Positions 9,105 to 12,401 of a DNA stretch of 64,000 bases are shown piece after piece. Origin of the DNA: a virus (Duplodnaviria; Caudoviricetes); IMG/VR virus record IMGVR_UViG_3300022848_000005; one strand, 5' to 3'. A program made the position numbers and the translations under genes. Every line of letters begins with the position of its first letter. Within the stretch, counting starts at the first letter, position 1. The notes below the pieces were generated by a model. That model did not search any database and was not told the DNA's origin. It worked only from the letters and a program-made list of their open reading frames with translations.

Positions 9105-9371
9105 ATGTTCAAGATTACTGATATTAGTGTGAAAAATTTTATGAGCGTTGGAAACAGCACTCAGGGTATTCGGTTTGACAGAAATGACCTAACACTTGTA
9201 CTGGGGCAGAATTTAGACCTAGGTGGTGATGACACAGGCGCACGTAATGGTACAGGCAAGTGTCTTTGTATAAATACATTAGTAAAAGTTCGAAATACAG
9301 AAACCGGCGAAGTAACAGAACTTACTATGGGAGAATTGTATAATGCCGCGGTGGGACAACAGCCTAAATGA
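9105..9371 (+). CDS. gp46: gp46 (SbcC/Rad50-like ATPase) N-extein of 52 aa fused to a split-intein N-fragment
   Basis: KNFMSVGN...LTLVLGQN...GARNGTGK Walker A motif, broken after Lys and continuing as CLCINTLVKV (intein block A). Confidence 0.9.
   Translation: MFKITDISVKNFMSVGNSTQGIRFDRNDLTLVLGQNLDLGGDDTGARNGTGKCLCINTLVKVRNTETGEVTELTMGELYNAAVGQQPK
9261..9368 (+). mobile_element. Split intein N-fragment, 36 aa
   Basis: Cys1 codon TGT at 9261; CLCINTLVKVRNTETGEVTELTMGELYNAAVGQQPK then a stop codon. Confidence 0.85.
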
Positions 9372-10443
9372 TAACTGCACACAAGTAATGGAAACTGTTA
9401 TCAAAAATATAGAACCCAATACATACCAAACTTTACTTGCCTGCATAATACAGGCTAATGTCAAGAACTCTAAAAAAGAAATAGAAAAATATGTACGAAC
9501 CAGATTAGGACTCGTTACTTCTGACTCTAGACATACTAGAAATTATTGGTTACTAAGAGGATGGAGTACAAACGAAGCTTATGTAAAAGCTAAAGAAAAT
9601 AAACAGAAAAACTGCAAAAGCGTATACAGCCGGGAATTCTGGCTAGAAAAAATTAATCCTGCAACAAACAAGCACTATTCGGTAGACGAAGCAGACTTCG
9701 AACGGAACTCTCGTAGACCCATTAAAAAAGAATACTGGATCAAAAAAGGATACAGTAACAGCGATGCACGAGATTTTGCCGCTGGCGCCAAAGAAAGCAA
9801 CAACAAGAAAGGTGCCAGTGCGTCGGCAACAAGTGAGGTTCGCAGGGTTACCTCTAAGCGATGTATTGAGTATTATACCAGCAGAGGTGCTACGTTAGAA
9901 GAAGCGGCGGCTATGTTATCTAATTCTCAAAAATACTTTTCAAAAGATATATGTATTAAAAAATATGGTGAAGAGTCTGGTCTTGAAATATGGCAAGACA
10001 GGCAAGATAGGTGGCAGGCAACGCTAAATGCAAAGACAGACAAGGAAAAAGCAAGAATAAATCGATCTAAAATGTCAAAAGGAATATCAGTCTCAAATGC
10101 TGAAAAAATAATTGTCGAACATCTATCATTATTAGGAATAACAGTAGACACGCAATTTACATTATTTCAAAAAAATAAAAAACAATTTGTGTATGATATA
10201 ATGTATAATAATAAAATTGTTGAGTATAATGGCGATTTTTGGCACTCCAATCCTTTGTACTACCATGATAATTTTTTAAACCCAAGAACTAAAATAATAG
10301 CCAAAGAGAAATGGAAATTGGACAAGGCAAAAATTCAATTTGCTAAAGCCCAAGGGTATGAAGTATTAGTAGTATGGGAAAGCGATTTTAAGCAAAATAA
10401 AGAGGAAGTAATTAAACAGTGCATACAATTTCTAAAAACGTAA
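9343..10443 (+). CDS. Free-standing Vsr-like (EDxHD-type) homing endonuclease
   Basis: C-terminal YDIMYNNKIVEYNGDFWHSNP...DKAKIQFAKAQGYEVLVVWESD. It overlaps both intein halves in a different reading frame. Confidence 0.8.
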   Translation: MPRWDNSLNDNCTQVMETVIKNIEPNTYQTLLACIIQANVKNSKKEIEKYVRTRLGLVTSDSRHTRNYWLLRGWSTNEAYVKAKENKQKNCKSVYSREFWLEKINPATNKHYSVDEADFERNSRRPIKKEYWIKKGYSNSDARDFAAGAKESNNKKGASASATSEVRRVTSKRCIEYYTSRGATLEEAAAMLSNSQKYFSKDICIKKYGEESGLEIWQDRQDRWQATLNAKTDKEKARINRSKMSKGISVSNAEKIIVEHLSLLGITVDTQFTLFQKNKKQFVYDIMYNNKIVEYNGDFWHSNPLYYHDNFLNPRTKIIAKEKWKLDKAKIQFAKAQGYEVLVVWESDFKQNKEEVIKQCIQFLKT

Positions 10444-10790
10444 ACAGAAAATTTATCAATAGTATTGATCTAACTAATCTCGAGATCGAAACCGATTCGG
10501 GATGGCAACCATTATCGACTATACACAAAACAATCCCGTATACTACCTGGCACATCGAGACAGTTAGCGGACTTACACTTGACTGTGCAGATACCCATAT
10601 TGTGTTCGATCATAACTATAACGAAATATTTGTTAAAGATATCGTGCCATGGGAATCTAAAATAATAACCAAGAACGGTGTTGACGTTGTTTGTAAAGTA
10701 GACGAAAAATCTTGCCAAGAGAACATGTTTGATGTTACAGTTAATCATCCCGCACATAGATTCTACTCTAACGGTATACTGTCACATAAC
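10419..10790 (+). mobile_element. Split intein C-fragment, 124 aa
   Basis: Block B DCADTH, block F MFDVTV, block G FYSNGILSHN; the +1 residue is Thr at 10791. Confidence 0.85.
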
Positions 10791-12401
10791 ACCACCATTA
10801 TTAACGCACTAAGTTATGCGTTATATGGTGAAGCACTGACAAAGATTAGAAAAGAAAATCTAATCAATAAAACAAACGGTAAGGATATGGTGGTTACCAT
10901 CGACTTTGAAAAAGATGGTAGCGCATATCGTATAGAGCGTGGTCGCAAACCTAACGTGTTAAGGTTCTACGTCAATAACACAGAACAAGATGACAACACT
11001 GCACAGGGCGACAGTCGTGAGACACAAAAGGAAATAGAGATCCTGCTGGGCATGAGTCATGATATGTTTAAGCACGTTGTTGCCTTAAACACTTACACTG
11101 AGCCTTTCCTAAGCATGCGAGCCAATGACCAGCGTCAGATGATTGAGCAGTTGCTGGGCATAACAATGCTTAGTGAAAAAGCAGACGCTCTCAAGGAACA
11201 AATTAAAGAAGTCAAAGACTCTGTTAAACTAGAGGACTTTAGAATTAAAGCAGTTAAAGAAGCAAACGAGCATGTTGGCACACAGGTGTCTAAATTAGAA
11301 CGTCGCTCAGTAATGTGGGAAACTAAAAAGCAGGAGGATAGTGTTAACCTCCAAACTGCCATAACTGCGCTTGAGAGTGTGAACATTGAAGCAGAGTTAG
11401 AAGCACATAGGTGTCTAGTAACTTACAAAGAGCATGCCCGTAATATTCGAGACTTAGACACTGCTATTACTGCCAATCAGAAAACTGTTGTTGCTGGTAA
11501 CAGCAAAGTAGAAAAGTACACAAAAGAGCTAGAGCAACTTCAAGATCACAAGTGTTTTACCTGTGGTCAAGAGTTTCACGACAGTAAACAAGAGCAGTTA
11601 ATTGTTAGTAAACAGGAAGACATAGCAGAGTTACAGGACGATATTGCAACTGCCGCACAGGGCTTGCAATCGCTAGAGCAAGCTCTATTAGATGTAGGCA
11701 AACTGGAGGACTGTCCTCCAACGTTTTACGACAGCATAGACGATGCGTACAATCACAAACAACAAGTCGACACGCTACAAACACAACTTAAGCAAAAGCA
11801 ACAGGAGTCTAATCTTTATACAGGGCAAATTCAGGAGATGAAGACTACTGCTGTACGAGAGATTAACTATAACATAATTAATGAATTCAATAGAAGACTG
11901 GAACACCAGGACTTCTTGTTAAAACTGTTAACCAACAAAGACAGTTTTATTAGAAAAACAATTATTGATCAGAACTTGGCATACTTAAATGCTAGACTAA
12001 GTTATTACTTAGATAAGATTGGACTACCGCACCAGGTAACCTTCTTAAGCGACTTAACCGTGGACATACAGGAACTGGGCAGAGACTTAGACTTTGATAA
12101 CCTATCACGTGGAGAACGCAATAGACTTATATTAAGTTTAAGTTGGGCTTTCCGAGACGTATGGGAAAGTTTATATCAGCCTATTAACGTATTGTTTATT
12201 GACGAGGTTATTGACCACGGCATGGACGGTATGGGTGTTGAGAGTAGTCTAGCAATACTTAAAAAGATGGCTAGAGAAGGCAACAAAGCAGTGTGGTTAA
12301 TATCACACAAAGACGAACTAGCTGGTCGAGTTAATAATGTATTGAACGTTGTTAAGGAAAATGGATTTACCAGTTACAATAATGACGTTGACACCGTATA
12401 A
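10419..12401 (+). CDS. gp46: Split-intein C-fragment (124 aa) fused to the gp46 C-extein
   Basis: GTG start about 12 nt after AGAGGA. After SHN come TTIINALSYALYG, a coiled coil, a CFTCGQ zinc hook, the LSRGE signature and the FIDE Walker B motif. Confidence 0.9.
   Translation: MHTISKNVNRKFINSIDLTNLEIETDSGWQPLSTIHKTIPYTTWHIETVSGLTLDCADTHIVFDHNYNEIFVKDIVPWESKIITKNGVDVVCKVDEKSCQENMFDVTVNHPAHRFYSNGILSHNTTIINALSYALYGEALTKIRKENLINKTNGKDMVVTIDFEKDGSAYRIERGRKPNVLRFYVNNTEQDDNTAQGDSRETQKEIEILLGMSHDMFKHVVALNTYTEPFLSMRANDQRQMIEQLLGITMLSEKADALKEQIKEVKDSVKLEDFRIKAVKEANEHVGTQVSKLERRSVMWETKKQEDSVNLQTAITALESVNIEAELEAHRCLVTYKEHARNIRDLDTAITANQKTVVAGNSKVEKYTKELEQLQDHKCFTCGQEFHDSKQEQLIVSKQEDIAELQDDIATAAQGLQSLEQALLDVGKLEDCPPTFYDSIDDAYNHKQQVDTLQTQLKQKQQESNLYTGQIQEMKTTAVREINYNIINEFNRRLEHQDFLLKLLTNKDSFIRKTIIDQNLAYLNARLSYYLDKIGLPHQVTFLSDLTVDIQELGRDLDFDNLSRGERNRLILSLSWAFRDVWESLYQPINVLFIDEVIDHGMDGMGVESSLAILKKMAREGNKAVWLISHKDELAGRVNNVLNVVKENGFTSYNNDVDTV

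Follow-up and report, generated by a model that had tools for sequence, protein, structure and literature searches.

How can a phage make an intact gp46, a Rad50/SbcC-like ATPase, when the gene is broken inside its Walker A loop and a second gene lies in the gap? The question is raised by positions 9105-12401 of a 64,000-nucleotide (nt) stretch of viral DNA (IMG/VR virus record IMGVR_UViG_3300022848_000005), here called the window in its full length. A preliminary description, made from the letters of the window, had proposed that an atypically split intein, encoded as separate N-terminal and C-terminal fragments (IntN and IntC), interrupts the protein, that a free-standing endonuclease is involved, and that functional gp46 needs protein trans-splicing. 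All the computational tests reported here agree with that proposal. In the resulting reading gp46 is a fractured gene, with a split intein and a nuclease cassette in its Walker A loop, whose product would be restored by splicing in trans; we give this reading a probability of about 0.85.

Organization of the fractured gp46 gene

The features of the locus are listed below.

9105-9260, + strand: N-terminal host part (N-extein) of gp46, the Rad50/SbcC-like ATPase; codons 1-52, reaching the end of Walker A (...GARNGTGK); aligns with residues 1 to ~50 of gp46 in phages PA5oct and Phosso, where the protein has no intein.
9261-9371, + strand: IntN, 36 codons (Cys1...GELYN AAVGQQPK) and a stop, the coding part being 9261-9368; contains block A, strands β1-β2 and helix α1.
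9269-9276, + strand: candidate T4-type late-promoter core TATAAATA, inside IntN codons 3-6.
9343-10443, + strand: open reading frame (ORF) of a putative free-standing Vsr-like (EDxHD-type) homing endonuclease; 366 amino acids (aa), +1 frame, overlapping IntN by 29 nt and IntC by 25 nt.
9345-10418, + strand: nuclease cassette of ~1.07 kb relative to contiguous alleles, delimited by BLAST with the contiguous locus L005; the 3' boundary is approximate.
10419-10790, + strand: IntC, 124 codons from the GTG start to Asn124; block B (CADTH), block F (MFDVTV..HRF) and block G (SHN).
10791-12401, + strand: C-terminal host part (C-extein) of gp46, 536 codons and a stop; its first residue is Thr+1 (the Walker A Thr), and it includes the Rad50 zinc hook and the ABC signature region.

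The ORF at 9105-9371 encodes 88 aa, namely MFKITDISVKNFMSVGN...GARNGTGK followed by CLCINTLVKVRNTETGEVTELTMGELYNAAVGQQPK and a stop, and its IntN part begins with CLCINTLVKV and ends with GQQPK. A Cys-initiated intein sequence that stops after 36 residues is thus present behind GARNGTGK, as had been described. The separate ORF said to supply the remaining blocks is also in the sequence: at 10419-12401 it encodes 660 aa and starts with 124 residues that contain ...SGLTLDCADTHIVF... (block B, in the context ...LDCADTHIVF...) and ...MFDVTVNHPAHRFYSNGILSHN (blocks F and G, ending in SHN), after which the host sequence resumes with TTIINALSY, in TTIINALSYALYGEALTKIRKENLINKTN.... Read in the frame of the two gp46 halves, the middle ORF is interrupted by dozens of stops, which rules out a single frame broken by a small error.

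Among deposited phages, the closest relatives are the gp46 proteins of Pseudomonas phage PA5oct and Sinorhizobium phage Phosso, which lack an intein, with 47.7% identity across 99% of the C-extein. In an alignment with them, the insertion point fell exactly at GTGK|T: the match of the N-terminal ORF ended at GTGK and that of the C-terminal ORF began at T(T/A)xxNALSY. In the PHROG 77 (SbcC-like) profile, the N-terminal ORF extended up to position 333 and the C-terminal ORF covered positions 334-954. Together, the alignment and the continuity of the profile at 333|334 place the break exactly between the Walker A Lys and Thr, and joining the halves gives the normal GTGK|TT P-loop that had been anticipated. 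The spliced protein would have 588 aa, compared with 584 and 593 aa in the two intein-less phages, and Pfam gave a hint of Rad50_zn_hook in the C-extein. As judged from these alignments, the element is an in-frame insertion at a conserved host site, with the host sequence continuous across it.

Recurrence of the split layout

Contigs of four runs of the salt-lake series covered both ORF overlaps with 0 gaps and no differences, the runs not being fully independent since some may be the source of the window. The same arrangement recurred widely in relatives. A search with the IntC region found 340 homologous proteins, mostly of ~660 aa with the IntC and gp46 layout (55-99% identity), while the N-terminal half matched 305 homologous ORFs of 71-119 aa (mostly 77-92 aa) and the nuclease matched 199 homologues of ~350-370 aa, often on contigs shared with the halves. 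In IMG/VR, 432 stretches encode a relative; among 83 loci examined, 69 were split, most of them with a 350-375-aa ORF between the halves, and 103 of the 107 parsed relatives of the C-terminal half were split. One such locus (L003) has three overlapping genes after gp47, with overlaps as in the window. The split gp46 layout is not a sequencing error and not a pseudogene.

Identity of the intein and position of the break

Cys1 (window 9261-9263) was present in all 119 parsed relatives of the N-terminal half, whose IntN was mostly 37 or 39 aa long. Invariant positions were C53, N57, T67, T74, G76 and L78 in IntN, and C56, A57, D58 and H60 (block B), D105 (block F), H113-R114 and S122 in IntC, with H123 and N124 of block G nearly so. 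IntC was 123 or 124 aa long in 101 of 103 split relatives. The +1/+2 residues of the 107 relatives parsed by a motif pattern were TT (97), ST (5), TS (3) and SS (2), and the 12 relatives skipped by the pattern likewise had SHN followed by T or S.

The nearest solved sequence was the VidaL intein (6vgv; E 3.5e-4, IntC residues 20-124). Designer 'Pizza' β-propellers were the top PDB sequence matches for IntC and were set aside as repeat artefacts, at 6-7 bits per repeat. Natural contiguous alleles exist (P0053, P0080 and P0103), and P0103 is 61% identical to the window in IntC and 79% in IntN. Its residues 41-224, folded with an alignment of halves as input, were modelled with a mean predicted local distance difference test (pLDDT) score of 83; the only weak internal stretch was residues 45-53, a linker after helix 35-42, and the break of the window maps exactly onto this low-confidence linker. 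A Foldseek search with the model returned, among its top 50 PDB matches, almost exclusively inteins, together with a related BIL/HINT domain, the best being VidaL 6vgv (E 2.9e-11; template modelling (TM) score 0.87). The HINT fold was judged on this contiguous relative, the halves of the window being modelled only as a complex. Apart from a variant block B, motifs and predicted fold are those of a class-1 intein with a HINT fold, for which splicing catalysis is predicted.

The break lies between block A with helix α1 and block B, leaving a short IntN of 36 aa and a long IntC of 124 aa. This position after α1, called S2, is also that of AceL-TerL and GOS-TerL, as reported in PMC13014065, where the break of VidaL and PolB16 is placed behind β2. 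The conserved core of IntN spans ~28 aa (Cys1 to GELYN), and with 36 aa the whole IntN is among the longer of the atypical fragments found in nature.

Selection on the halves and their predicted association

Pairwise ratios of nonsynonymous to synonymous substitution rates (dN/dS) across 51 split gp46 loci were ~0.30 in both IntN and the nuclease, 0.26 in IntC and 0.22 in the adjacent extein, rough values since dS is near saturation for many pairs. A complex of IntC (1-135) with IntN (43-88) was predicted with an interface score (ipSAE) of 0.75, against 0.01 for the best control. In the benchmark this ipSAE mark was attained by 58 of 80 complexes of solved structure and by 2 of 110 mismatched pairs; these counts apply only roughly, as alignments made for this analysis were used. 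Association of IntN with IntC is accordingly a model-based prediction.

Split alleles without the nuclease were found at the same break, in a TerL gene (L007, 3994-4008) and in two gp46 genes (L066, 3440-3560, and L068, which shares the IntN of L066), with a AATGTATAA stop/start overlap coupling the halves. Given these alleles, the halves must work as separate proteins at this break, and nothing but joining at the protein level can restore the enzyme there.

Origin of the fracture

Comparison of the contiguous locus L005 with the split locus L056 showed a clean nuclease insert of 1062 nt with no flanking base lost: the two aligned up to ...GGAGAATTATACAAT and again from AACCATAGAAAAATGCAT..., with 1062 extra bases in L056. 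The cassette (L056:2427-3488, relative to L005:4240|4241) lies between ...TACAAT and AACCATAGAAAAATG..., and the L005-type empty site reads ...GAATTATACAAT|AACCATAGAAAAATG.... Against the window, the BLAST alignment of L005 broke at 9344 and resumed at 10420; ~12 nt before the GTG were unaligned, and the 3' boundary of the cassette is therefore approximate.

The nuclease ATG consists of the A and T of an intein Asn codon and the first G of the insert. The L056 insert provides the last 8-9 codons and the stop of the N-terminal half; in the window the first 27 bases of the cassette are 8 codons and the stop, and its 3' end carries the ribosome-binding site of the C-terminal half. The 36-aa length given for IntN in the preliminary description is borne out, but its last ~8 residues come from the nuclease cassette and are not ancestral intein.

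Two further loci, L019 (3380-3560) and L041 (3300-3560), are split, lack the nuclease and retain remnants of both cassette ends (L041 keeps ...YEVLVIWESDFKKNKEEVVKKCIQFL), which marks them as decayed copies. One site thus occurs naturally in four forms (contiguous, invaded, decaying and compact), a series that fits the gene-breaking model of Dassa et al. 2009 (PMC2677866). A bolder possibility, to which we give a little less than an even chance, is that one orthologous site keeps every stage in the birth and settling of a split intein. The series would begin with a contiguous mini-intein; a cassette that takes part of its start codon from the intein would then invade the loop after α1, giving a split intein that carries the nuclease and has a late promoter in the IntN coding sequence; the nuclease would decay, and a compact split intein with coupled stop and start would be left. 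The same lineage would also have moved between the equivalent Walker A Lys|Thr/Ser positions of gp46 and TerL.

The nuclease

A profile built from 36 relatives of the nuclease and compared with solved structures placed Vsr (1odg, 1vsr and 1cw0) on top, with a weak E of ~0.07. Residues E294, D298, W300, H301 and D327 were invariant in the 36 relatives and align with the FWH...D region of Vsr; counterparts of the Vsr catalytic residues Asp51, His69 and Asp97 are present, together with a family-specific Glu. In the AlphaFold model (pLDDT 87.5), the ~260 N-terminal residues form a helical region, and an α/β domain occupies 269-365. Foldseek ranked Vsr 1cw0 and I-Bth0305I 3r3p first, both at probability 1.0; their E of 0.04-0.06 reflects the use of the whole 366-aa model as query. 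Pfam matches to DUF559 and MTES_1575 were below the cut-offs (E 0.03-0.04). These statistics agree with one another, although each is weak, and the protein is filed as a putative Vsr-like homing endonuclease, as in the fractured genes.

Residues 1-263 (window 9343-10130) were confidently modelled as all-helical, with repeated W/Y-rich motifs, and matched no known family. This helical region is presumably the DNA-recognition part.

A candidate late promoter inside IntN

The sequence ATAAATA, examined in IntN codons 3-6 of the loci L003-L088, was kept in 36 of 37 distinct nuclease-bearing alleles, compared with one of seven nuclease-less alleles (Fisher p = 7e-6, relatedness ignored), and the six losses involved four different substitutions. 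The codon of Asn5 was AAT in 42 alleles and AAC in one, while that of Asn12 was split 18 to 24. This conservation suggests selection at the DNA level tied to the nuclease gene, and TATAAATA is a candidate late promoter for that gene. The window encodes a late sigma factor (7138-8046), and Dassa et al. 2009 reported the same motif near the nucleases of their loci (PMC2677866). In the window as a whole, motifs of the TATAAATA type were not enriched, and scans for sigma-70-type promoters and terminators stayed at background level.

The motif bases can pair with the stretch between the Shine-Dalgarno sequence of the nuclease and its ATG. A regulatory hairpin from the TATAAATA region to the nuclease start was considered; its energy was no better than chance (z = -0.52), and it is kept as an idea only. 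Across loci, duplex energies averaged -6.1 kcal/mol, against -4.0 kcal/mol for shuffled sequences, with an invariant 5' arm that makes covariation uninformative. The RNA around the IntC start folded no better than chance.

Proposed mechanism and alternative explanations

The anatomy of the locus, its conservation, the purifying selection, the empty and filled alleles, and the predicted fold and binding were established directly, and the following scheme was built upon them. A class-1 mini-intein occupies the Walker A loop of the phage gp46, between Lys and Thr of GTGK|TT, and a cassette of ~1.07 kb with the gene of a putative Vsr-like homing endonuclease has landed in the loop after the first helix of the intein. 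Two polypeptides would then be made, gp46(1-52)-IntN (36 aa) and IntC (124 aa)-gp46(53-588). IntN would dock into the incomplete IntC and complete the HINT fold, and splicing would take the usual class-1 path, in which Cys1 undergoes an N-S acyl shift, Thr+1 attacks, Asn124 cyclises and an O-N shift completes the reaction. The expected product is a 588-aa gp46 with an intact P-loop, which would act together with gp47 (Mre11/SbcD-like), the product of the gene immediately preceding gp46. Expression of the nuclease may be late and start from TATAAATA within the IntN coding sequence, and the enzyme probably propagates the cassette by cleaving alleles that lack the nuclease when phages co-infect a cell. 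The splicing chemistry, the activity and target of the nuclease, and the promoter are what we infer here.

Removal of the cassette from the RNA, for example as a group I intron carrying the nuclease ORF, would instead give a contiguous intein messenger and splicing in cis. In keeping with this, the L005/L056 cassette follows a U and ends in a G, as group I introns do, and its 1062 nt are a multiple of three, the two halves sharing a frame in most loci. In other sub-clades (L052, L057, L062 and L084-L087), however, the halves are in different frames. Between 8900 and 13500 no Rfam intron or other RNA family was found at E <= 1, the nuclease ORF takes up the entire cassette and changes in the manner of a protein-coding gene, leaving no room for a ribozyme core, and shuffled sequence folds as well as the RNA around either junction. 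Moreover, nuclease-less split alleles exist, and their overlapping stop and start are beyond rescue by RNA splicing. The RNA-level join that the preliminary description had named as an objection is thus very improbable. A further objection named there, sequencing errors in one contiguous intein, would here mean assembly or sequencing errors at both frame breaks of an intein with an internal endonuclease domain; it could appeal to the in-frame endonuclease domain of most large inteins and to overlaps of only 25-29 nt, which two single-base errors could in principle merge. Yet the contigs of four runs agree and show no indels at either frame break, hundreds of diverged sequences from separate assemblies have the same stops, starts and overlaps, and the nuclease region carries the many stops in the frame of the halves noted above. 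The indel-free contigs and the conserved ORF boundaries refute this reading, and its probability is close to nil.

An unlikely alternative of a different kind, though less remote than an RNA-level join, is that the gene is inactive, or that the intein halves are sticky association domains which hold the gp46 pieces together without a peptide bond. Thr+1 is a weak nucleophile, and a fragmented phage enzyme assembled non-covalently has a precedent: the pieces of the split NrdA of Aeromonas phage Aeh1 are described as held together in this way (PMC3045599). Mere association would, however, need none of the residues kept in the relatives, some of them nearly without exception, namely Cys1, the block B His, the block F Asp, the block G His-Asn and Thr/Ser+1. 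Unless the halves are ligated, 160 residues would separate Lys from Thr in the P-loop. The same intein also has contiguous alleles, in which a working protein requires splicing, and both the exteins and the intein are under purifying selection.

Several points weigh against the predicted trans-splicing of a fractured gp46. None of the listed sequencing runs that contain the stretch is on record as RNA. The ORF at 10419-12401 starts with GTG where the alignment shows ATG in relatives, dS is near saturation as stated, and the complex prediction may partly reflect memory of solved split-intein structures. Neither half matched a Pfam intein model at E <= 0.1, and identification as an intein relies on motifs, relatives and fold. 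The CADTH motif described as block B is present, but as A-D-T-H: an invariant Ala replaces the Thr of TxxH, with His60 invariant. This Thr is present in most inteins, although changes of this kind are tolerated by some inteins that remain active. As the +1 nucleophile, Thr generally reacts more slowly than Cys or Ser do.

Genomic context of gp46

The window derives from a T4-like giant phage of a salt-lake metagenome, and the longest contig listed for its protein cluster has 289 kb; a near-identity DNA search of deposited phages with the window gave no match. Upstream of gp46 are a gp55-like late sigma factor gene (7138-8046) and, directly before gp46, the gene of a gp47/SbcD-like nuclease (8077-9090). 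The window also encodes a T4 baseplate gene and a gp20 portal gene. Directly 3' of gp46 lies a gene for a SegE-type GIY-YIG homing endonuclease (12479-12934; Pfam E 2e-39), found in the same place in L003 and L005, so that a second selfish nuclease gene flanks gp46.

In runs X10 and X16, a 606-nt contig with a depth ~3x or more that of the window's contigs had only short matches to the N-terminal half of gp46 (window 9128-9277). It points to a related and more abundant phage from that salt lake, one in which the start of gp46 has diverged.

Comparison with known systems

The closest known arrangement is that of the fractured genes (PMC2677866), which, like the window, have a free-standing nuclease gene on the same strand between the intein halves, overlapping ORF ends and the TATAAATA motif near the nuclease start. 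Their hosts are named as gp41, IMPDH, DnaE, NrdA, NrdJ, ligase, terminase and one protein of unknown function, and gp46, Rad50 and SbcC are absent from the text of that paper. All but one of those inteins have the canonical break between motifs N4 and C2; the single terminase locus, also broken at an unusual point, has an IntC of 122 aa. The window differs in that its intein is broken behind block A and helix α1, and its single site is represented by alleles of all three kinds: contiguous, with the nuclease and without it.

In reviews up to 2026, the natural atypically split inteins listed are AceL-TerL, GOS-TerL, VidaL and PolB16 (PMC13014065; PMC11766414). AceL-TerL and GOS-TerL have IntN fragments of 25 and 37 aa and IntC fragments of 104 and 115 aa, with the break after the first α-helix, S2 (PMC13014065; PMC11766414). 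They resemble the element of the window in being naturally split, with a short IntN, a long IntC and a break after α1, and in having a phage P-loop ATPase as host. Their host is TerL, whereas that of the window is gp46, and their nucleophiles are Cys1/Cys+1 and Ser1/Cys+1, as against Cys1/Thr+1. VidaL (6VGV), a cysteine-dependent metagenomic intein, is the nearest solved relative by both sequence and fold (22% identity, TM 0.87). It breaks after β2 (S1, IntN of 16 aa), and the window breaks one element later, after α1 (IntN of 36 aa), indicating that the break point does not follow the relatedness of inteins. CatC, from Cat, the consensus of AceL-TerL and GOS-TerL (PDB 6DSL), was a weak match, with E 0.27 by sequence and rank 45 in Foldseek.

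A related intein, at 32-44% identity, is carried by 318 of 50,697 deposited phage genomes. Among the 100 matches listed of these 318, the hosts were TerL, a PA5oct-type UvsX-like recombinase, or otherwise annotated or unannotated features (hypothetical protein, HINT domain protein, none), and none was gp46. Contiguous TerL inteins of Ackermannviridae and of Vibrio, Campylobacter and Salicola phages are 33-44% identical to the IntC of the window, and some deposited records annotate the intein (Klebsiella phage Magnus, Salmonella phage Maynard). These deposited inteins are contiguous and in terminase, whereas that of the window is split and in gp46. Metagenomic TerL alleles are closer, being 55-59% identical in IntC and inserted at the equivalent Walker A position, ARQAGK|C...HN|ST. 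The TerL of related uncultured T4-like phages (L007:3619-5749; P0062, P0064 and P0119) has an intein, ARQAGK|C...SHN|ST, split at the same place, and P0119 apparently has a second intein further along its TerL. No donor or direction of transfer was drawn from a tree of IntC, which had 124 columns, unsettled bootstrap values and no clean separation of TerL-hosted and gp46-hosted inteins.

I-Bth0305I (3R3P; PMC3239194) appears to share its fold with the C-terminal domain of the window's nuclease (269-365), in which E, D, W-H and D are conserved. I-Bth0305I sits in a group I intron, whereas the nuclease of the window is free-standing inside an intein gene and has its ~260-residue helical N-terminal region of no recognised family.

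If the proposed reading is correct, a recombination and repair ATPase of an uncultured salt-lake giant phage would most likely rely on post-translational ligation. The family also gives unusually direct support for the fracturing of inteins by free-standing homing endonucleases, through its clean empty/filled pair, its decaying and compact alleles, and a break that differs from that of VidaL. Natural split inteins with a short IntN are few and are valued because the short piece can be made chemically; the family adds a Cys1/Thr+1 member with large natural diversity. The use as a ligation tool suggested in the preliminary description is plausible: should the split members trans-splice well, nature would supply over 300 atypical split inteins of the Cys1/Thr+1 type to choose from, with a core IntN of ~28 aa.

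A literature search, including reviews up to 2026, found no paper reporting an intein in gp46, Rad50 or SbcC. The kind of element is known, both from the fractured genes and from atypically split inteins broken after α1; within the papers and listed matches covered, the gp46 host, here with the Cys1/Thr+1 pair of nucleophiles, is new.

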